This document shows positions 5,509 to 33,146 of a stretch of DNA of 64,000 nucleotides, one piece after another. Each line of letters starts with the position of its first letter. Position 1 is the first letter of the stretch. This DNA comes from an uncultured Gammaproteobacteria bacterium (GTDB lineage: Bacteria; Patescibacteriota; Patescibacteriia; UBA1558; GWA2-36-10). The position numbers and the translations under genes were made by a program. The notes below the pieces were generated by a model, which saw only the letters and a program-made list of their open reading frames with translations, was not told where the DNA came from and did no database searches. The DNA lies in NCBI GenBank assembly GCA_964633905.1, contig CAZWIT010000005.1, positions 26,610 to 90,609 on the forward strand. Reading direction: 5' to 3'.

Positions 5509-8082
5509 TTAAGCGGCTATTTTATCAGCTTCATCAAAATTAACCGATAACAATTTGGAAACACTGTCATCACCCATGGTAACACCGTAAATAATCCTAG
5601 ATTGTTGCATGGTAGCGCGGTTATGAGTAATAGCAATAAATTGAGTTTTATTAGATAGCTCGGCTAAAATTTGACTAAACCTAACTGAGTTAGCTTCATC
5701 TAAAGCAGCATCCACTTCATCTAAAACTACAAAAGGCGATGGATTATTAGCAATAATAGCACAGATCAAAGCAATAGAAGTTAAAGCTTTTTCACCGCCT
5801 GATAACATATTAATACTAGATAAACGCTTACCCGGAGGCGTTGCTTTTATTTCAATACCATATTGTTTTCTAATTGCTGAATTACTATTTTTTTCTTGTG
5901 CCTCTGTCTCACCATTTTCTATTTCAATAGATTCATCTTTTACTTCTCTAATATCTAAAATTAATTCTGCCTTACCACCATTAAATAATTTTTTAAAATA
6001 AGTATCAAATAATTTATTTATATTATGAAAGGCCTGATCAAACTGCTCAGCAATGGCTTCATCTAAATCTTTGATAATTTTCTCTAAATGTTCAATGGCC
6101 TGTTCCAAATCTTTGCTTTGCTCGCTCAAAAAAGTAAAACGATCATTGACCTGAGTAAATTCAGAAGCAACCGTTGGATCAATACCACCAATAATCTGTA
6201 ATTGATTTTTTAAATTATTAATTTGTTGACGCACGCTATCAGCTTCTAAATCTTTGACAACTTGCACTTTAAGCTCTGGCATTTCCTCAGCAATTTCTGC
6301 TAGCAAATCTTCTTGCTTAGTTTCCAATTTAGCTAAAATTATTTTTACTTCATTTAAATGGGCATTTTTACTATTAAATTCTTGCTGAATATCGCGGAAA
6401 CTTTTTTGTGATTGCAATAAAGCTGAGCGTTTAGCCTCTTCTTCAGCATTAAAATTTTTAATCTGCTCTTCAATTTTAGCGATTACTAAAGACTGTTGAT
6501 TTATTTTATGATTAATATTATTTAGCTGTTCTTGCAATAATTTATTGTCAACTGATTTTTCTAAAATTAATTTACGATCATGTTCTAATTTTAATAATTC
6601 ATCTTTAATTGAGATAATTAGTTCTTCTGATTGTTTGATATTTTGATTAAAGCCAGACAAAGCCGCCCGAGCTTCGGCGATTTCTCCTACCAAAGTGTCC
6701 TTGTGTGTTAATAATTTATTAAAATCTTGTTGCCAATTTCCTTGCGAAATATCACTAGCTTGCTGCAAACGTTCGCCTAAATTTCTTAAACTCTTACTGA
6801 CCTGCTGACAAGTATGCTTTAAACTACTTAGCTCTTCTAGGCTTTCCATTTTATCTAAAGAGTCTTGCAAAGTCTGCTGATCATGAATAATACCCTCTAG
6901 TTCTTTAGCAATCTTAGCTGGAGACCAATTACCCTGCTGGTTGGACATTATCAATTTTTCCAATTTCTGAAAATCTTCGACTACCCGAGTCTGATTTTTT
7001 TCTAAAGTAACAAGTTCATCTTTTGCTTGTTGAGCCTGATGACGTTGGCTTTCTAATTTTAAATTAGCCTTATTTAATTGATTTTCTAAATCAGATACTC
7101 TTTTCTTTAACCAAACAATATCTGCTTGTCCACTAGCAAGCAATTTCAAATCCGACTGTCCTTCTAAAATTGTTTTATCTTTTAATAAAACATTGAGCTC
7201 GGCCTGTTCTTGGCTTAAGCTTTTTTGCAAAATTTCAAAATTATTCTGACGAGTGTTGGCCTTTGCTTCTTTATCTAAAGAGGTTTGTAAATCTACCAAC
7301 TGCTGATTCAATTCGGCTACTTGCGTTTGCCAAACATGATAATTGCTTCTGGCTTCTTTTAATTCTTTTTCTAAATTATTCTTCAAAAAATTATAATATT
7401 GCGTTTGCAATTCCTGTAATTCAAAAGTTATTTTTTCTCTTTTTTCTAAACGCCTTACCTGCCTAGTCAGACTGCGCAAATGTGGTTCTAATTCTAAAAT
7501 AATTTGCCTTGTTTGTTCTAAATTTTCCTTAGCACCATCTAGTTTAGAAATAGCCTGCTCTTTTTTGATTTGAAACTGACGTACGCCAGTTGCCTCATCG
7601 AAAAATTCTTTACGCTCAGCAGCTGATGATATTAAAATAGAATCAACTGTGCCCTGGCCGATTACGCTATAGGTTTTTTGACCAAAATTAGCTTTAGCCA
7701 AAAGCAATTGCACGTCTAATAATCTAACTTTATTGTTATTGATTAAATATTCTGAGCTAGCATCCCTATCTACCCGACGCGTAATAACTATTTGATCATA
7801 GTCTACGTCAGCTGATTTATCACTATTATTTAAATATAGACTTACTTCGGCAAATCCTAAGCGACTTTTTTTATCAGAGCCAACAAAAATAACATCTTCC
7901 GCTTTTTTGCCACGCAAAGTCTTACTACTCTGCTCACCCAAAACCCAACGCACTGCGTCAGCAATATTTGATTTGCCAGAACCATTAGGACCAACGATAG
8001 CCGTAAGCTCTCGATTAAAAACTAACTGACTATGCCTAGCAAAAGATTTAAAGCCTTGAATTTCTAATTTTTCTAAATACAT
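5509..8082 (-). CDS. smc: Chromosome segregation protein SMC (short form, 857 aa)
   Basis: N-terminal Walker A (GPNGSGKSNI), long heptad-rich coiled-coil arms, and a C-terminal signature LSGGEK plus a Walker B VLDEVDAALD. Confidence 0.85.
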   Translation of the reverse strand: MYLEKLEIQGFKSFARHSQLVFNRELTAIVGPNGSGKSNIADAVRWVLGEQSSKTLRGKKAEDVIFVGSDKKSRLGFAEVSLYLNNSDKSADVDYDQIVITRRVDRDASSEYLINNNKVRLLDVQLLLAKANFGQKTYSVIGQGTVDSILISSAAERKEFFDEATGVRQFQIKKEQAISKLDGAKENLEQTRQIILELEPHLRSLTRQVRRLEKREKITFELQELQTQYYNFLKNNLEKELKEARSNYHVWQTQVAELNQQLVDLQTSLDKEAKANTRQNNFEILQKSLSQEQAELNVLLKDKTILEGQSDLKLLASGQADIVWLKKRVSDLENQLNKANLKLESQRHQAQQAKDELVTLEKNQTRVVEDFQKLEKLIMSNQQGNWSPAKIAKELEGIIHDQQTLQDSLDKMESLEELSSLKHTCQQVSKSLRNLGERLQQASDISQGNWQQDFNKLLTHKDTLVGEIAEARAALSGFNQNIKQSEELIISIKDELLKLEHDRKLILEKSVDNKLLQEQLNNINHKINQQSLVIAKIEEQIKNFNAEEEAKRSALLQSQKSFRDIQQEFNSKNAHLNEVKIILAKLETKQEDLLAEIAEEMPELKVQVVKDLEADSVRQQINNLKNQLQIIGGIDPTVASEFTQVNDRFTFLSEQSKDLEQAIEHLEKIIKDLDEAIAEQFDQAFHNINKLFDTYFKKLFNGGKAELILDIREVKDESIEIENGETEAQEKNSNSAIRKQYGIEIKATPPGKRLSSINMLSGGEKALTSIALICAIIANNPSPFVVLDEVDAALDEANSVRFSQILAELSNKTQFIAITHNRATMQQSRIIYGVTMGDDSVSKLLSVNFDEADKIAA

Positions 8083-8140
8083 AAATAAAAAATAAACGCT
8101 ACTTTAAGCGCTCTTATTTTAACATATTTTGCCTGCTTTG

Positions 8141-8320
8141 ATAAATTAAAAACCTGTTGCTTAAAACGCAACAGGTCGGATAATAAGGCGCCGCCTCGTG
8201 TGTAACTCACAGGCACATGGCCTACGCTCCATTGTCATGGTTCGTGTCGAAACACGTACCGGAGTCAACAGCGTCAAGTCAGCTGTCTAGGTTTCACACT
8301 TAGCGGCGCCCATAGACTTA
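8141..8320 (-). ncRNA. GC-rich structured ncRNA candidate B (unknown family; 6S- or SRP-like possibilities untested)
   Basis: A roughly 60% GC block in a 33% GC genome. A terminal closing helix GGCGCCGC / GCGGCGCC pairs 8188-8195 with 8303-8310. An apical UUCG-tetraloop hairpin on the minus strand, CGUGU-UUCG-ACACG, lies at about 8238-8251. The element ends in a minus-strand intrinsic terminator, CCTGTTGC-loop-GCAACAGG at 8153-8175, followed by a U-run. No ORF is present. Confidence 0.45.
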
Positions 8321-8393
8321 AAGAAGAACAATCAAAGTATCATATACACTAACAAAAAATCTAAAATATGTCAAGATTAGCTACAAAAAACAA

Positions 8394-8565
8394 TAAAAAA
8401 AGAGTCGATCCGTAGATCGACTCACAAAATGGCGGCGGGTCTGCGAATGAGATAGGCTAGGGTTAAGGTGACGTGCACACTGTTAGGAGGCAATAGAGAT
8501 CAACTCGATTGAAAAACTGGCCTAGCCATCAAGGTTCCGCAGAACCCGCCAACGAACTTGTTTAC
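8394..8565 (-). ncRNA. GC-rich structured ncRNA candidate A (unknown family)
   Basis: A 13-bp closing helix GGCGGGUUCUGCG / CGCAGACCCGCC pairs about 8540-8552 with 8439-8450. An inner helix GGCUAGG / CCUAGCC is also present. The element ends in a strong minus-strand terminator, GAGTCGATC-cgta-GATCGACTC at 8402-8423, followed by U7. No ORF is present, and the GC content is far above the local background. Confidence 0.45.
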
Positions 8566-8653
8566 ATTAATATTATATATTACTAAATTTATTTTTGTCA
8601 AGAAAATAAAAAACCAAGCCTTATGCCTGGTTTATATATTATTATTTTTTATA

Positions 8654-9346
8654 CTACCAACCTTTATTAGCAAGAGCCGCAGCTGCAGCCTCGGTCTGAG
8701 CTTCTTGCTTGCTATAACCCTCGCCTTCAGCAATTAATTCTTTATCAAGGTAAACGCCAATTACAAATTTCTTGTGATGATCAGGACCAGATTCTGATAA
8801 TACCTTATAACGTGGAGTAATACCAACTTTTTCTTGAGACTTTTCTTGAAACAGACTCTTGGCATCCACATAAGATTTATCAGCAATCAACTTTTCTAAA
8901 TGAATCAAAATATTATCCTTAACAAATTTAGCAGCTGTTTTATAACCTTGGTCTAAATAAATAGCTCCAATCACTGCCTCCATAGCATTAGCTAAAATAT
9001 AACTACGTGCTTTTTTATTGGTATCTTGAGCTTCACCGCGACTTAGATATAAATAATCATAAAGTCCTAGATTTTCTCCTTGCGCGGCTAGTTGGGTAGC
9101 ATTTACTAAGCCTGAACGCCAATTAGTAAGGACTCCTTCTGGATCTGGATAGTTGCGATAAAGGTGATCAGTAACAGCTAATTCTAAAACTGCATCACCC
9201 AAAAACTCTAGACGCTCATTATGGTCAATGGCAAAATCCTTATGCTCATTAATATAAGAACGATGCACTAGAGCGTTTCTTAAAATATTTAGATCTTTAA
9301 AATCTACTGCTAATTTTTTTTGCAATAAGTCTAAATTCTTATTCAT
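8654..9346 (-). CDS. rnc: Ribonuclease III
   Basis: RNase III signature ERLEFLGDAVLEL with a C-terminal dsRBD; length 230 aa. Confidence 0.9.
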   Translation of the reverse strand: MNKNLDLLQKKLAVDFKDLNILRNALVHRSYINEHKDFAIDHNERLEFLGDAVLELAVTDHLYRNYPDPEGVLTNWRSGLVNATQLAAQGENLGLYDYLYLSRGEAQDTNKKARSYILANAMEAVIGAIYLDQGYKTAAKFVKDNILIHLEKLIADKSYVDAKSLFQEKSQEKVGITPRYKVLSESGPDHHKKFVIGVYLDKELIAEGEGYSKQEAQTEAAAAALANKGW

Positions 9347-9457
9347 CCCGTTAGAAATTTAAATAATAAAATTTTTGATTTTTGAGGTAAAATTTTGCTA
9401 ATAAACTTATGCGCATATTGCTAAACATTGTTTAGTGAATTTCGTACGGGATTCATA

Positions 9458-10327
9458 TTATTCTAAACCTAGTTTAGCCAAACCTTTGTGAAAAATATCT
9501 TTAGCATTTTCATAGCCAAAAGTAGAGAGAGCTTCTGACTGACTAAACCATTTTACTTCTTTAATTTCTGTAACATCTGCCGCGGGTTGAACTAACTCTG
9601 TATCTTTAGCTTCTACTAAATAATATTTTATCAATTTACGAAAAGGTTTAGCATCTGGCTTATGCACCTTTACTTCGGTTTCACCTAAATATTCAATAAC
9701 TTTTAATTTTTGCAAACCAGTTTCTTCTCTGAGTTCTCGTAGAGCTACCGTTTCCAAAGTTTCACCCTCTTCAACATGGCCCTTAGGGAAAGTCCATTTA
9801 CCATAAGCATCAAGCACTAAACAAAAATTATAGCCGAGCTCTGTTTTGTGATAAACCATACCGCCAGCAGAAATTTCTTTTATACCTTGGCTAGCCAGAG
9901 TTTGTTTTTCACCTTTACTCATCATTTCTTTATAAATGCTACCTAAAACACCATTAACAAATTTACCACTAGCATCACCGCCAAAAGCTTTAGCAAGCTC
10001 AATAGCCTCGTTGATTGCTACCTTGGGCGGTATTTCTTGGGATACTTTTAATTCATAAATGCCAATGCGTAAAACATTACGATCAACCATAGTAATCTGG
10101 TCTAGTGGCCATTCTGGTGCAAATTGGACAATTAATTTATCAATTTCACGTCTATTTTTAACCACTTGACGAACCAAATTTAAAGCAAATCCCTGATCGT
10201 CAAAATCAGGGGCAAATTCTTGCTGATCATAATCCAAAGACTCCAATACATCATGCTCAGCATTGGTAAAATCCCATTCAAACAAAGCCTGCAAAGCAAT
10301 GGTCCTAGCTAAGTGTCTGTTGGCCAT
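9458..10327 (-). CDS. nusB: NusB (transcription antitermination factor) fused to a C-terminal NUDIX hydrolase domain
   Basis: Residues 1-140 match NusB, including the C-terminal block KVAINEAIELAKAFGGDASGKFVNGVLG. Residues about 150-289 carry a perfect Nudix box, GHVEEGETLETVALRELREETGL (G-x5-E-x7-REUxEExGU). It is a single uninterrupted ORF. Confidence 0.8.
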   Translation of the reverse strand: MANRHLARTIALQALFEWDFTNAEHDVLESLDYDQQEFAPDFDDQGFALNLVRQVVKNRREIDKLIVQFAPEWPLDQITMVDRNVLRIGIYELKVSQEIPPKVAINEAIELAKAFGGDASGKFVNGVLGSIYKEMMSKGEKQTLASQGIKEISAGGMVYHKTELGYNFCLVLDAYGKWTFPKGHVEEGETLETVALRELREETGLQKLKVIEYLGETEVKVHKPDAKPFRKLIKYYLVEAKDTELVQPAADVTEIKEVKWFSQSEALSTFGYENAKDIFHKGLAKLGLE

Positions 10328-14028: not shown

Positions 14029-14183
14029 AAAAATATACTACCTTTATTGATCTTTGTCCAATACCATCTATCTGCCCAATGCTATCTACCATTTAAAACT
14101 CTTGACCAATTTGGCAAATTTAGCTAGTGTGTTATATTAAATCTGAAGCAATTTCGCTCGTTCTTTAAAGGAGGTGTCACCAA

Positions 14184-14405
14184 ATGCCAAGAACTCTAAG
14201 CGTCAGAAGACAAATTAAGCAACTATTTATTACCCTGACTATTGTTTGTCTAATACAAATTATCTGTTCTTTTTTGCCTAATGACCTGGGCCTACGCCTA
14301 GGCTTGGGCACTTGCATTTTTGGTGGCTTGCTAATCCTCTTACAAATATTAGTGCTCTGTCTGCTCGTCCGCCAGAATTCACTTGGGCGTGATAAGCACG
14401 CCTAA
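14184..14405 (+). CDS. Small hydrophobic protein (2 TM), unknown function
   Basis: A strong RBS TAAAGGAGGTG lies 7 nt upstream of the ATG. 73-aa ORF, followed by a strong terminator at 14497-14535. Confidence 0.45.
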   Translation: MPRTLSVRRQIKQLFITLTIVCLIQIICSFLPNDLGLRLGLGTCIFGGLLILLQILVLCLLVRQNSLGRDKHA

Positions 14406-14496
14406 GCGCGCGCCTAAAAGTGTGTGGGGCACAAAGCGGGTGCGCAATACATTAACCCAAACCGGTTAAGAAGGGGTGAGCCAACAGGGATAGACC

Positions 14497-14535
14497 CCGC
14501 TACGTTCAACGTAACGGGGTTTTTTATTTTAAAAA
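14497..14535 (+). terminator. Rho-independent terminator (plus strand)
   Basis: CCCCGCTACGTT-c-AACGTAACGGGG hairpin followed by TTTTTTATTTT. Confidence 0.6.
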
Positions 14536-28802: not shown

Positions 28803-29501
28803 TTAAGCTGTTTTTTTATTATTTTTCCCTAAGATTAAATATTGTTGAAAAACAGAGAACAGAGTAGTAAATAACCAATACATGGTAAGCCCGGCTGGTA
28901 GACTAGAGCCAATAAAAATAGTAATTACTGGCATAAAATAAAGCATTTGTTTATTCATCATAGCGCTCATACCGCCAGTACTAGCATTTTTGCCACCTAA
29001 TAGCATTTTAGATTGCCAAAACTGAGCCAAACCAGCTAGTACTGCTAGTAAAATATTTTTATTAGCTAAATCAATAAAACCAAAAGCAATAGTATTTAAT
29101 GAGCCTGGGTTAGCCACGAAAGCATATAAAGCAGACAAACTACTTTCTTTGGTCAAACCATCATAAAAAACACGATAAATAGCAAATAAGAATGGTAATT
29201 GAATTAAGGTAGGCAAACAAGAAGCAAATGGATTGATCTTTCTTTCTTTATATAAAGACATTAGCTCTGGACCCATTTTTTCTTTATTGTCCTTGTATTT
29301 TTCTTTAAGAGCTTCTATTTCTGGTTGAATTAGCTGTAATTCTTTTTGAGACTTAATGGCTGATTTAGAAAGAGGATATAATATTAAACGAATTAAAAGG
29401 GTTAATAATAATATAGCCACACCCAAATCGTGTCCTGGAACACTATTGTATAAAAAAACTAGTAAATTAAAGATTGGTTGATAAAAAATTGTATGAAACA
29501 T
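28803..29501 (-). CDS. yidC: Membrane protein insertase YidC (short Gram-positive/CPR type)
   Basis: 232 aa with five TM segments. The first helix carries the conserved arginine (LIRLILYPLS), and the C2 loop is coiled-coil. The gene is adjacent to yidD, rnpA and rpmH. Confidence 0.85.
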   Translation of the reverse strand: MFHTIFYQPIFNLLVFLYNSVPGHDLGVAILLLTLLIRLILYPLSKSAIKSQKELQLIQPEIEALKEKYKDNKEKMGPELMSLYKERKINPFASCLPTLIQLPFLFAIYRVFYDGLTKESSLSALYAFVANPGSLNTIAFGFIDLANKNILLAVLAGLAQFWQSKMLLGGKNASTGGMSAMMNKQMLYFMPVITIFIGSSLPAGLTMYWLFTTLFSVFQQYLILGKNNKKTA

Positions 29502-29507
29502 AAATTT

Positions 29508-29768
29508 TTATTTAATTGGATCGTGACCACCTTTGGACCAGGGATGACAACGCAATAAACGATAAGAACACATAATTACACCCTTATAAGGACCATGTTT
29601 GCTTATTGCTTGCCGACAATATTCTGAACAATGTGGCTCAAAGCGACAAAATCCATAAGGATAAAATCCTTTTAATAAACCATCGTCTGGTGATAAGGTT
29701 TTTTGATAAATATTAATAATAAACAACAATATTTTCTTTAAAAACTCATTAAACCAGGAAAATATCAT
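29508..29768 (-). CDS. yidD: Membrane protein insertion efficiency factor YidD
   Basis: YQKTLSP...CRFEPHCSEYCRQAI...HPWSKGGHDP matches the conserved YidD family sequence. Confidence 0.8.
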   Translation of the reverse strand: MIFSWFNEFLKKILLFIINIYQKTLSPDDGLLKGFYPYGFCRFEPHCSEYCRQAISKHGPYKGVIMCSYRLLRCHPWSKGGHDPIK

Positions 29769-30115
29769 GATTTTTTATTCAATAGCTTAATTTGATTATA
29801 GGCAAATTCTATTTGTTTTTTTAATTCAACAAAATTTAGCTCTAAGGCACTTTTTTTAGCTATAATTAGCAAATTATATCCTGGTTTTAAGTCTTTTAAA
29901 AAACTTCTATTTATTTCTCTTAGTCGTCTTTTTAATAAATTTCTTCTACTTGCCCTTTTATCAACTTTATTTGAAACTATAAAACCAATCTTAATGTCCT
30001 TATCTTGATTAGCTAGATATTTTAAGGTTAGTTGCGGCAAAAAAAAGGTTTTACCAGATCGGATTAACCTTTTTATTTCTAAGTCAGTGTTTAATCTGTT
30101 GTTTTTGGCCAACAT
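29765..30115 (-). CDS. rnpA: Ribonuclease P protein component
   Basis: 116-aa basic protein. Its position between rpmH and yidD is universally conserved, and the RNR-like basic motif (KRASRRNLLKRRLREI) is present. Confidence 0.8.
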   Translation of the reverse strand: MLAKNNRLNTDLEIKRLIRSGKTFFLPQLTLKYLANQDKDIKIGFIVSNKVDKRASRRNLLKRRLREINRSFLKDLKPGYNLLIIAKKSALELNFVELKKQIEFAYNQIKLLNKKS

Positions 30116-30124
30116 AAGCCAAAA

Positions 30125-30265
30125 TTATACAGAAATTTTAGCCCTACCTTTAGCGCGACGACTTTTTAAAACCCTACGACCAGTTGCACTACTCATTCTC
30201 TTACGAAAACCGTGGCTTCTGGCTCTTTTTTTCTTTTTTGGTTGGTATGTTCTTTTAGTAGCCAT
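30125..30265 (-). CDS. rpmH: 50S ribosomal protein L34 (not in ORF track, 46 aa)
   Basis: Hand translation gives [46 protein letters not shown], which matches the bL34 consensus (KRT(F/Y)QP...R..HGFR.RM.T..GR.VL..RR.KGR..L). The plus-strand ORF 30087..30275 is its antisense shadow. Confidence 0.85.
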
Positions 30266-30432
30266 AATAAAATAATTAACTGTTTTAAGATAACATAAAA
30301 GCCTTATTTTTTCAAGGCTTAAGTTTTATCCACAAATATCAACAACTTATTCACAACTTGTAAACTATTGTGATTATTTGAGTTAATTATATTTTGTGCT
30401 ATATTTATAGCAGTTTTAAATAGGGGTGAAGC
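30266..30432. promoter_or_regulatory. oriC segment upstream of dnaA, containing DnaA boxes
   Basis: Perfect TTATCCACA at 30326-30334. TTATTCACA at 30347-30355. A two-mismatch box (complement TAATCACA) near 30369-30377. This is the rpmH-dnaA intergenic position classic for bacterial origins. Confidence 0.6.
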
Positions 30433-31809
30433 ATGGAAAATCGTGAAAAAATTTGGCAAAGTGTTTTGGGTCAATTAGAGCTACTAATTAGTCGCGCTAA
30501 TTTTACAACCTGGTTTAAAAATACTTTTTTAGCTGAACACAACGAACAACAAGTAATAGTAGGGGTTCCTAATTCCTTTACTAAAGTTTGGTTAGAAAAA
30601 AAATATCATGATCATATTACCAAATCTTTAGAAAATATCTTATCTATAAATAATCTACAGGTTATCTACAGGGTTGAAAATAGGGATATTGCACCTAATA
30701 TTAGCCAAAATATTGCTGAAATTAAAGAAGCAAATCAGACTCCTGTGCATAACCAAACAGTTATAAACAACAATAAAACCATTAATAAATTTGGTTTAAA
30801 TACTAGCTATAATTTTAGTAATTTTATTGTTGGGCCAGGCAATGAACTTGCTCAAGCAGCTTCTATGGCTTGTGCTCAAAAACCAGGTGAAACTTATAAT
30901 CCATTATTTATTTATGGCGGTGTGGGCCTTGGCAAAACCCACCTTGTTCAGGCTGTTGGAAACTATATTTTGGCTAAAAATCCACAAAAAAAGATACTTT
31001 ACATAAACAGTGAAAAATTTACTAATGACTTTATTTTTGCCATAAAAAGCGGCCACACTGATAAATTCAAAGAAATATATAGAAATGTTGATGTTTTATT
31101 AATAGACGATATTCAATTTATAGCCGGTAAAGAACAAACCCAGGAAGAGTTTTTCCATACTTTTAACGCTCTTCATCAAAATAACAAACAAATAGTCATC
31201 TCGTCAGACCGACCACCCAAGGCAATTGCCGGTATTGAAAACCGCTTAATTTCTCGTTTTGAATGGGGAATGATAGCTGATATTTCTTTTCCTGATTTAG
31301 AAACTAGAGTAGCAATTCTTGAAACTAAGTGCCAACAAAAAAATTATAATCTTGCTACTGAAATTATTCACCTAGTAGCTGAAAGTATCCAGGAAAATAT
31401 TCGTGAACTAGAAGGAGCTTTAAATAGAGTAATTGCTTTTCATCAGCTTAATAACACTCAACCAAGTCTAGAAAGCGTACGCGCCCTCTTAGGAGGAATT
31501 TCTGCTAATCCTAAAAAAGCTGGGCTTACTACTAAAAAATTATTAAAAACAGTAGCAGATTTTTTTGATATTTCCCTAGATGAATTGCTTGGTTCTAGTA
31601 GAAAAAAAGAATTGGTCGTACCTAGACAGATTGCCATGTTTTTGATGCGCGAACAATTAAAAAGTTCTTTTCCTAACATCGGACAAGAAATAGGGGGTAG
31701 GGATCACACTACTGCTATGCACGCTTGTTTAAAAATTTCAGACCTAATAACTAGTGATGAAAAAATGAAAAACGATCTGGCTGTTCTGCGTCAAAAACTA
31801 TATGAATAA
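30433..31809 (+). CDS. dnaA: Chromosomal replication initiator protein DnaA
   Basis: AAA+ Walker A GGVGLGKTHL, Walker B LLIDDIQF, sensor motifs, and a C-terminal DNA-binding domain with the DnaA signature. Confidence 0.95.
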   Translation: MENREKIWQSVLGQLELLISRANFTTWFKNTFLAEHNEQQVIVGVPNSFTKVWLEKKYHDHITKSLENILSINNLQVIYRVENRDIAPNISQNIAEIKEANQTPVHNQTVINNNKTINKFGLNTSYNFSNFIVGPGNELAQAASMACAQKPGETYNPLFIYGGVGLGKTHLVQAVGNYILAKNPQKKILYINSEKFTNDFIFAIKSGHTDKFKEIYRNVDVLLIDDIQFIAGKEQTQEEFFHTFNALHQNNKQIVISSDRPPKAIAGIENRLISRFEWGMIADISFPDLETRVAILETKCQQKNYNLATEIIHLVAESIQENIRELEGALNRVIAFHQLNNTQPSLESVRALLGGISANPKKAGLTTKKLLKTVADFFDISLDELLGSSRKKELVVPRQIAMFLMREQLKSSFPNIGQEIGGRDHTTAMHACLKISDLITSDEKMKNDLAVLRQKLYE

Positions 31810-32042
31810 ATTGTGTATAAATTACTAAAAGATTGTGTGTAAAAAAATTAAAAATATATTTTTAAACGCTTATCAACAGTCTGAATAAAATTTTTGCACA
31901 AGATAAAACCTGTTTATACACAAAAATAATATTGAAAAACTAGAAAAATAGCCAATAAAAATAAGTATTCTTAACACTTCTGCACATTTCCGCAATAGCC
32001 TATAACTACTACTTTATTTATAAATATATATATAATAATACT
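31810..32042. promoter_or_regulatory. Second oriC segment (dnaA-dnaN spacer) with DnaA boxes and AT-rich DUE
   Basis: One-mismatch DnaA boxes TTATCAACA (31870-31878), TTATACACA (31924-31932) and a minus-strand TTATACACA (31812-31820). A TA-repeat unwinding element, TTTATTTATAAATATATATATAATAATA, lies at about 32005-32040 immediately before dnaN. Confidence 0.55.
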
Positions 32043-33146
32043 ATGAAAATAATTTGCACCCAAGAAAATTTAAATAAAGGATTAAATTTAGTCTCCCACA
32101 TTGCAAATAAAAATAGTAATTTGCCAATCTTAAATAACGTATTATTTAAAGCTAATAAAGATGGTTTAACTTTAATTACCACTGATTTAGAAATTGGTAT
32201 AAAAGTATTTGTGCGTAGCAAGGTGGTAGAAGAAGGAGATTTTACCATTGATGCTAAACTATTAAATAATTATGTTAGTTTATTACCAAAAGAAAATATT
32301 GATTTAAATCTTAATGAAGGTTCTTTGGAAATAAAAAGTGCTAATCAAGAAACTAGTATAAAAGGTTTGGATGCCGAAGATTTTCCCTTAATACCAGAAA
32401 TTGAAAAGACCAACGAAGTTTTGATACCAGCTGCTGATTTAAAAAAAGCCCTAAATCAAGTTTTGTTTTCAGCCTCTTTGGATAGTTCTCGAATCGAAAT
32501 TAATGCTGTTAATTTTAATTTTTATAAAGAGAATTTAACCTTAGTCGCTACCGATAGCTATCGTTTAGCAGAAAAGAAAATAAAAATTAACAATCAGAGT
32601 AAAGAAGCAAATTTAATTATTCCTCTTAAAACACTACAAGAACTAAACAGGATTATAGCTGAACAACCTGGAGAAGATTTAAAATTATATTTTAATGAAA
32701 ATCAAATACTTTTTGTTTTTGATGGCGTGGAGCTTGTTTCTAGGGTAATAGATGGTCATTATCCTGATTACAAACAAATTATTCCCAGTAGTTTTGTGAC
32801 TAAAGTAAAATGTGATCTAAACAAGCTAATTCCAGCTATTAAGGCTGTTTCCTTGTTTTGTAAACAAGGAATTAATGATATTAAGTTGAGTTTTGAGGAA
32901 AAAAGCGGGGAAATAATAATATCAACAGCCTCTTCTTATACTGGTAATAGTATTGCCAGGATTCCAGCTGAAATAAAAGGGGAAAACAACGACATAGTCT
33001 TTAATTATCGTTATTTGTTAGATGGTTTAAATAATATTGATAGTAGCCAGGTTTATCTACAACTAAACAACAATGCTTCGCCTGGTCTTGTTCAACCAGG
33101 TGATAATCAAGAATATATATATTTAATTATGCCTATTAGACAATAG
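32043..33146 (+). CDS. dnaN: DNA polymerase III beta sliding clamp
   Basis: 367 aa with a three-domain beta-clamp layout, immediately downstream of dnaA. Confidence 0.9.
   Translation: MKIICTQENLNKGLNLVSHIANKNSNLPILNNVLFKANKDGLTLITTDLEIGIKVFVRSKVVEEGDFTIDAKLLNNYVSLLPKENIDLNLNEGSLEIKSANQETSIKGLDAEDFPLIPEIEKTNEVLIPAADLKKALNQVLFSASLDSSRIEINAVNFNFYKENLTLVATDSYRLAEKKIKINNQSKEANLIIPLKTLQELNRIIAEQPGEDLKLYFNENQILFVFDGVELVSRVIDGHYPDYKQIIPSSFVTKVKCDLNKLIPAIKAVSLFCKQGINDIKLSFEEKSGEIIISTASSYTGNSIARIPAEIKGENNDIVFNYRYLLDGLNNIDSSQVYLQLNNNASPGLVQPGDNQEYIYLIMPIRQ

Follow-up and report, generated by a model that had tools for sequence, protein, structure and literature searches.

The spacer of 571 nucleotides (nt) that separates the RNase III gene rnc from smc in an uncultured member of the Patescibacteria (Candidate Phyla Radiation, CPR), a lineage with tiny genomes, raises the question of what it encodes. 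The locus lies in a 64-kb stretch of contig CAZWIT010000005.1 (positions 26,610 to 90,609), which we analysed as a whole and call the window; all positions are counted from its first base. The window is AT-rich (34.8% GC), and the original prediction was that this spacer is free of open reading frames (ORFs) and carries two independent, terminator-delimited, structured RNAs on its minus strand, both outside known families. This view was borne out: the ORFs in the spacer are all at most 47 amino acids (aa) long, and neither Rfam nor ARAGORN placed the two RNAs in a known family. Judged on anatomy alone, the elements, here RNA A and RNA B, are very probably two independent stable small-RNA genes. 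The comparisons described below indicate that they are new, lineage-restricted families of a familiar kind of gene, one with its own promoter and terminator.

Along the minus strand, the intrinsic terminator of rnc at 8602..8633 (stem 8633..8611 and T-run; terminator scan) abuts the RNA B promoter at 8572..8601, in which the -35 box TTGACA (8601..8596) and the -10 box TATAAT (8577..8572), separated by an 18-nt spacer, match the consensus at 12 of 12 positions. The same promoter is also present in L082, L084 and L176 (loci of other genomes bear L numbers throughout). From the spacing, transcription is predicted to start near 8565, giving a predicted transcript of ~170 nt (8395..8565, minus strand). 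It carries the 5' motif GUUCGU at 8557..8552, and its closing helix P1 joins GGCGGGUUCUGCG at 8550..8538 with CGCAGACCCGCC at 8445..8434; a second helix, P2, pairs GAUGGCUAGG with CCUAGCC-UAUC. The predicted fold leaves an open apical region of ~58 nt, which contains CCUCCUAA and beyond which there is only a hairpin of 4+3 base pairs (bp). The terminator at 8423..8402 is followed by U7. Orthologues of RNA B in L082, L084, L176 and L172 retain P1.

The RNA A promoter at 8346..8374 (minus strand) consists of a -35 box TTGACA (8374..8369), a 17-nt spacer and a -10 box TAGTGT (8351..8346), with TGT before the -10 box in the manner of an extended -10 promoter; L082 has TTGACA-17-TAGTAT at the same position. 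Transcription would start near 8339, and the predicted transcript of ~190 nt occupies 8146..8339 on the minus strand. Its leader is AU-rich and contains GUUCUUCUUUAAG (GUUCUU at 8329..8324). The closing helix pairs GGGCGCCGC(U) at 8311..8302 with (G)GCGGCGCC at 8195..8186 around a GCGCC/GGCGC core, and the closing pair of the body can be written as GGGCGCCGCU with GGCGGCGCCU. The interior is GC-rich and predicted to be multi-branched, and the terminator lies at 8177..8151. A-type relatives of RNA A are found in L082, L085, L086, L178 and L172, the last with two copies.

Both closing helices were found as the original prediction had written them, and the scan recovered both of its minus-strand terminators (8177..8151; 8423..8402 with T7). 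Two details need correction. The bodies, described as about 60% GC, measured ~51-54% (57% in the richest 80 nt); the window as a whole has 34.8%. The UUCG hairpin that had been placed at the apex of RNA B is actually in the 8188-8310 block (CGUGU-UUCG-ACACG, ~8258..8245); it forms if folded alone but is not in the minimum-energy fold of the whole RNA A. The prediction had overlooked that each RNA has a promoter of its own, that a GUUCYU motif recurs near the 5' ends and that smc has a separate promoter.

Five terminator-like sites were found in the 900 nt scanned, against 0.6 expected, and none of them was on the plus strand of this region. Without their terminators the two bodies fold with z = -4.0 and -5.0 relative to dinucleotide shuffles, of which 0/200 fold as well; with terminators the values are z = -6.0 and -5.6. 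Folding energy cannot set the strand, because both strands fold about equally. Promoters and terminators are found on the minus strand only, and the RNAs are therefore assigned to it. From these signals we infer expression and the approximate transcript ends.

Could RNA A instead be part of the smc gene, as a cis-acting leader (riboswitch or attenuator) that acts through terminator read-through? The succession of promoter, folded domain, terminator and gene is indeed the classic attenuator layout. However, smc, whose ATG is at 8082, has a conserved extended -10 promoter of its own downstream of the RNA A terminator (TTATCA-17-TAAAAT with TG, 8144..8116, minus strand), followed by a short leader hairpin at 8113..8094, close to that ATG. 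This promoter block, TATGTTAAAATAA, is near-identical base for base in L082, L085, L086, L172, L168, L170 and L174. RNA A is thus outside the smc transcription unit, because smc has a separate promoter after the RNA A terminator. In addition, the RNA A interior, as the would-be ligand pocket, shares only 43% identity with that of L082 at 98% identity in rnc, we noticed no alternative pairing that could act as an anti-terminator, and the smc gene of L088 does without any such element. We consider a leader role highly improbable.

The next question is whether the RNAs belong to a known family. At gathering thresholds, Rfam 15 returned only three transfer RNAs (tRNAs) from the whole window, and at E<=10 the interval 8050-8680 gave chance-level matches only, so that the Rfam search proposed with the original prediction produced nothing credible. 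At E<=5 the spacers of L082, L084, L085 and L086 yielded only a tRNA, the rest being chance-level. Transfer-messenger RNA (tmRNA) was rejected: ARAGORN found three tRNAs and no tmRNA in the window and no tmRNA in L082 and L084-L087, and there was no Rfam match. The RNA of the signal recognition particle (SRP) was rejected because no SRP-family match appeared at E<=10 and conservation is lowest in the apical parts, contrary to what SRP RNA shows. RNase P RNA likewise gave no match at E<=10, and the RNAs here are far too short for it. A search with nhmmer, using RNA A and RNA B against 80 GTDB representative loci whose rnc is at most 65% identical, gave no match, and 160 more distant rnc loci held no detectable homologue; sequence similarity to the two RNAs was detectable only at rnc identities of at least ~93%. 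A search of the literature on small RNAs, 6S RNA and structured RNAs of CPR/Patescibacteria found nothing relevant.

Among known families, 6S RNA (ssrS; RF00013 and related models) had been suggested at the outset, and the pair might accordingly be two divergent copies that sequester RNA polymerase holoenzyme. The likeness is that of a small RNA of the abundant type, transcribed independently and with a closing stem that brings its two ends together. What 6S RNAs conserve is chiefly their shape, their sequence changing quickly; two copies are present in some bacteria, and RNA B can be drawn as a closing stem, a bubble and a small apical hairpin. Against this, no 6S-family model scored at E<=10 in the window or at E<=5 in the four relatives, and the bodies are shorter (~125-135 nt versus roughly 180 nt). 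The predicted shape is also wrong: RNA A is branched rather than a rod, RNA B has no long apical stem past its open region, and the central bubble between two long stems that characterises 6S RNA is missing. Finally, what is conserved is the closing helix and not the sequences around a bubble, and the close relatives listed carry zero to four units, with none in L088. A 6S identity is very unlikely.

The distribution of the RNAs was traced through rnc. The relatives were taken from among the matches listed in the genome and metagenome scans, which are mostly distant, and the set of close relatives is small. In those with rnc 72-98% identical, the gene order is kept and a long rnc-smc spacer contains one to four units of the same build. 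L082 (rnc 98%) has RNA B and then a tRNA-like gene together with RNA A in one unit. L084 and L176 (93%) have RNA B, followed in L084 by the contig end and in L176 by a protein gene. L085 (87%) has one A-type unit only, L086 (84%) a B-like unit and an A-type unit, L178 (78%) three units, and L172 (73%) one B-type unit and two A-type modules within one unit. L168, L170 and L174 (72-73%) have one to four units of other sequence types. In L088 (70%) there is no unit, and the rnc terminator abuts the smc promoter. On this comparison the units constitute a narrow-clade island of variable copy number, and the range of zero to four copies in close relatives argues against a universal housekeeping role.

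Several peculiarities of these spacers deserve mention. The tRNA-like gene of L082 (3999-4073; also in L081 and L083) is 75 nt long and follows the promoter of RNA A, ahead of the RNA body; the window has no counterpart. It was called as tRNA-Leu(UAA) by ARAGORN and scored 47.8 bits with Rfam. The long variable arm of bacterial tRNA-Leu is missing and position 37 would be U; the gene could be either an unusual tRNA or a processing handle that resembles one. Protein genes are inserted in L170 (3602-4279, 225 aa, opposite strand), L174 (2705-3196, biotin/lipoyl-domain) and L176 (2464-3042, 192 aa), and the spacer is therefore a general hot spot for gene gain. In L168 (3245-3740) and L170 (3240-3545 and 4478-4625), unit 1 has GAUGUGCCUGGGU and units 2 and 3 have its complement (C)CCAGGCACAUC; this complementarity of 12-15 nt is kept in both genomes (rnc 72-73%) and hints that RNAs within these two islands might pair with each other. 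In the window, RNA A has the related AUGUGCCUGUGAG and RNA B has no partner sequence; duplex folding of RNA A against RNA B gave no consistent pairing signal.

Which parts of the units are under selection? Between the window and L082, ~41% of fourfold-degenerate sites differ (rnc 34/82, smc 86/205, nusB 38/102), so the neutral expectation is ~59% identity. The smc promoter block and the flanking genes are ~90% identical in this comparison. For RNA B, identity is 97% along the 5' strand of the stem, 86% along the 3' strand and 68% in the apical region; for RNA A it amounts to 79-83% in the two end segments but to no more than 43% over the 83-column interior. At 93% rnc identity the interior of RNA B is replaced, and UUGGCGGGUUC...GAAYCCGCCGCC persists. 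By these figures the interiors diverge at least as fast as synonymous sites. In all genomes they are nevertheless strongly folded and have 51-64% GC in loci of 35-43% GC. The rates, together with the retained GC content and fold, point to selection on the signals, the closing helix and a stable GC-rich fold, and not on the interior sequence.

The covariation analysis of related rnc-smc spacers that the original prediction had proposed revealed both conservation and compensatory change in the closing helix. For the A type, both strands of the closing helix were cut out manually from seven sequences, with the helix as guide. The five pairs that GCGCC forms with GGCGC are invariant, and nine of the ten flanking pairs change on both sides with pairing kept. 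Overall, 83.8% of cells are paired, against 34-57% after sliding the 3' partners by one to three columns, and the covariation score was reached by 0/500 shuffles. RNAalifold on full-length sequences gave the same helices and, in both types, compensatory changes in inner hairpins. In the B stems pairing is kept through A-U to G-C and G-C to G-U changes. Across the units the closing helices are 10-21 bp long, nearly perfect and GC-rich.

These data bear on the idea that the spacer merely contains inverted repeats that are rich in GC and have no function, for example a recombination scar or a miniature transposable element. Terminal inverted repeats do surround a variable interior here, and the spacer itself is variable. 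Mobile or scar DNA would hardly be expected, however, to sit at a fixed orthologous position with conserved promoter, motif and terminator, to show compensatory changes in its closing helix, or to hold a high GC content against a strong AT bias. Each element is single-copy in the 64 kb, where the intergenic GGCGCC pair occurs only here, and a search of 273 loci for the GGCGCC...GGCGCC pattern found only the orthologous site or coincidences in coding sequence. Phage and plasmid collections gave no match by BLAST, and viral contigs scanned with a 15-mer of RNA B gave 95 matches, none with the 3' helix half, which are chance matches. This explanation is extremely improbable.

The units also share a short sequence near the 5' end. 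We anchored all 22 units on their -10 boxes and took the expectation from flanking DNA. The pattern G[TC]TC[TCG]T starts 6-18 nt past the -10 box in 16/22 units, where ~2.7% would be expected (binomial tail 4e-21, ignoring the shared ancestry of the units). Among the other six, five have one-base variants and the sixth starts with the tRNA-like gene. The consensus is (U)GUUCYU(Y)(G). Among 22 promoter-like sites in the window, the motif occurs within 30 nt at the two RNA promoters only, and it is absent from the tRNA promoters in the window. The protein genes inserted in the L174 and L176 islands carry it too. At 2028-2095 on the minus strand, a promoter TTGACA-17-TAGACT has UUGUUCUUUGAUAG at +27. 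This sequence resembles boxA more closely than any other in the window and sits in the ~130-nt 5' untranslated region (UTR) of a signal-peptide protein gene (TTG start at 1962, Shine-Dalgarno AAAGGAGA). Since the motif stands at varying distances from the -10 box and is found both in RNA genes and in long 5' UTRs, it may be a signal at the RNA level rather than a promoter element or a regulatory seed.

The motif resembles the start of boxA, an element that in Gram-positive ribosomal RNA (rRNA) reads UGUUCUUUGAAAA and that shields untranslated CRISPR arrays from Rho. The gamma-proteobacterial consensus is GYTCTTTAANA (PMC5725501). boxA is the site of the NusB-NusE dimer and nucleates the rRNA transcription complex, which also chaperones RNA folding (PMC8632103). 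Matches to the full consensus, GTTCTTTAAAA and GCTCTTTAAAA, occur in 5' UTRs of other Patescibacteria loci (L046 and L030). The NusB-NUDIX gene at 9458-10327 lies two genes upstream of the island. It encodes, on the minus strand, a 289-aa fusion of NusB with a NUDIX hydrolase domain, and the fusion is kept in all close relatives fetched. On these grounds, transcription of the units with help from Nus factors through the leader motif is conceivable, and we hold it only tentatively, at somewhat less than an even chance.

A short shared 5' segment might alternatively mark base-pairing regulators. Tandem sibling small RNAs such as Qrr and OmrA/B share a segment that is their seed for pairing with messenger RNA (mRNA), and the units here are likewise tandem, have their own promoter and terminator, vary in copy number and share a short 5' motif. 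The difference is that the motif here is also found in the 5' UTRs of protein genes (window promoter 2095, L174, L176), as would be expected of a signal for transcription or processing more than of a seed. A more specific version would have the apical CCUCCUA of RNA B, which is anti-Shine-Dalgarno-like, pair with GGAGG sites and repress translation. The predicted fold does leave CCUCCU in the open apical part, L082, L086, L178 and L168 each have it in one unit, and the few window genes with a Shine-Dalgarno sequence, including the gene at 1962 and the small ORF at 14184, would make a small candidate target set. Yet CCUCCU is missing from the orthologues of RNA B in L084, L176 and L172, a search of the window for extended complementarity (19-mer, at most three mismatches) matched only itself, and RNA A, with an interior only 43% identical where rnc is 98% identical (L082), has no conserved single-stranded stretch. 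A general anti-Shine-Dalgarno role was rejected as unlikely, since most genes have no Shine-Dalgarno sequence and several look leaderless. We regard base-pairing regulation as unlikely.

If sequence in the interior is free to change, the function would be sought in the closing helix and the fold, which makes protein binding or processing of the RNase III type likelier than mRNA pairing. One such reading involves the neighbouring RNase III: the RNAs could be its substrates or decoys, or degenerate processing stems of rRNA or tRNA operons, with the helices as cleavage sites and the interiors either set free or without a function. RNase III usually prefers helices of roughly two turns. The units lie immediately downstream of rnc in every genome that carries them, and their closing helices are 10-21 bp, GC-rich and nearly perfect. 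Strong promoter, boxA-like leader and end-joining helix together resemble the leader-trailer layout of rRNA operons (PMC8632103), and L082 has its tRNA-like gene in the RNA A leader. On the other side, adjacency to rnc may reflect an insertion-tolerant spacer, as the protein genes in L170, L174 and L176 suggest, several helices are shorter than the preferred length, and Rfam found no similarity to rRNA. As the sole explanation we consider it quite unlikely, and it overlaps the explanation that we favour more than it contradicts it.

The resemblance to an rRNA leader can be drawn more closely. Both have a strong sigma-70 promoter, an early motif of the GYUCUU type and a long end-joining helix around a structured RNA, and the tRNA-like gene in the RNA A unit of L082 adds to the likeness. 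The units differ in that the enclosed RNA is ~100 nt and has no rRNA match, no boxB or boxC was recognised, each unit has its own intrinsic terminator, and the motif agrees with no more than the 5' half of the published boxA. A second likeness is to Y RNA and YrlA, RNAs associated with Ro60/Rsr, which are also ~100-130 nt long, with a conserved helix formed by the ends and a variable remainder; the tRNA-like module of L082 fits here as well. In contrast to these, the spacer gave no Rfam match, which covers the Y RNA models if they are in Rfam 15, and a Pfam scan of 36 window ORFs found no TROVE/Rsr domain. The bulged Ro-binding helix typical of that class is not evident either, although no search was aimed at it.

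Taking the evidence together, we favour the following mechanism, to which we assign about an even chance: the island turns over fast, its RNAs function through fold and closing helix, and Nus factors possibly assist. Each unit would comprise a near-consensus sigma-70 promoter, a short boxA-like GUUCYU leader, a GC-rich clamp that joins the ends, a branched GC-rich interior and a terminator. Selection would act on the promoter, leader motif, closing helix, terminator and the folded, GC-rich state of the interior, and not on most of the interior sequence. The products would be stable and trans-acting, with shape and closing helix as the working parts: they would serve as a scaffold or decoy that binds protein, or as a substrate for processing of the RNase III type, and would not regulate by base pairing. 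The leader motif would recruit NusB/NusE, allowing RNA polymerase to complete untranslated and strongly folding transcripts, as it does for rRNA. This recruitment, like the molecular target of the RNAs, is inferred. A bolder version, which we find decidedly unlikely, is an undescribed class of miniature stable-RNA genes assisted by Nus factors and boxA, in which the GC clamp (GCGCC/GGCGC) would be read by a dedicated protein or by RNase III, while the interior would serve as a fast-changing specificity module (guide-like or decoy-like, in conflict with host or phage) or as a titrator of Nus factors that feeds back on nusB-rnc.

A number of observations weigh against the favoured mechanism. Agreement of the motif with boxA is limited to six or seven positions at the start, and the consensus used is gamma-proteobacterial and may not be that of this clade; GUUCUUCUUUAAG of RNA A and GUUCGUUGG of RNA B both agree badly with its 3' half. 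The motif of RNA B also runs into the first part of the closing helix, and its counterpart may be not boxA but the helix strand GGUCGUUGC seen in the L086/L178 type. The 16S rRNA leaders of two distant Patescibacteria (L051 and L057) show no clear GUUCUU, a result that is uninformative. The ends-only alignment behind the A-type covariation is hand-anchored, which favours the helix, and there are five to seven distinct sequences per family. The plus strand folds about as well as the minus strand, both lying ~5-6 standard deviations beyond shuffles, and the transcript ends and the stability of both RNAs are predictions. Lastly, RNA B keeps a single-stranded CCUCCUA in several relatives, as a pairing regulator would.

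In L051 (8046-8265) and L057 (6560-6804), which were used for this leader comparison, a 16S rRNA gene is located downstream of rnc at a distance of 2-3.5 kb. A long hairpin, GGCUGGGAUUGC...GCAAUCCCAGCU, is common to the two leaders; after it come GUUAUU and a conserved GUGAUUUCUUAUCGUUAACCAGAAUCA.

The wider setting of the island is as follows. On the minus strand the order is a VanW-like gene, L32, NusB-NUDIX, rnc, the 571-nt spacer, smc (5509-8082), an ORF of 138 aa, S16, KhpA and trmD. The rnc gene (8654-9346, minus strand) was assigned through its homologues, and the best named matches of its RNase III product are metagenome genomes labelled Parcubacteria, Komeilibacteria and Nomurabacteria. 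Between nusB-NUDIX and rnc lies an AT-rich segment of 111 nt (9347-9457); since the two genes abut in L082, the segment has been inserted or deleted since these two genomes, with 98% identity in rnc, diverged. At 28803-33146 the gene orientation switches, with yidC on the minus strand followed by dnaA (30433-31809) and dnaN (32043-33146) on the plus strand, and a replication origin is therefore probably located near 29.5-30.4 kb. The rnc-smc island would then be ~22 kb from that origin and co-oriented with replication.

Most genes of the window have no Shine-Dalgarno sequence, and a TATAAT-like box is found 5-8 nt before the ATG of, for example, those at 32043, 48842, 51671 and 57639, which suggests that leaderless mRNAs may be widespread in the window. 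The sole other GC-rich intergenic island that is not a tRNA is an unlisted small gene on the plus strand at 14111-14530. It has a promoter TTGGCA-16-TATATT and a strong Shine-Dalgarno sequence, AAGGAGGUG, and its ORF at 14184-14405 encodes a hydrophobic protein of 73 aa; a GC-rich 3' region of ~100 nt follows, with a terminator near 14495-14525.

Almost nothing is known of non-coding RNAs in the Patescibacteria (CPR), whose tiny genomes leave little dispensable DNA. This clade nevertheless keeps as many as four GC-clamped RNAs with strong promoters at a single locus, with rapid turnover and despite its strong AT bias. For a reduced genome the combination of features is unusual, and the literature searched does not describe it: a GC clamp with an invariant core, interiors that change at or above the synonymous rate, zero to four tandem copies and a boxA-like leader in common. 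If the motif is a working boxA, a family of small RNAs would join rRNA, a few mRNAs and CRISPR arrays among the products of Nus-assisted transcription, and the completion of untranslated, strongly folding transcripts in these organisms would be explained. A conserved clamp around a fast-changing interior is also a lead to what may be a new RNA-protein partnership in bacteria that have not yet been grown alone.

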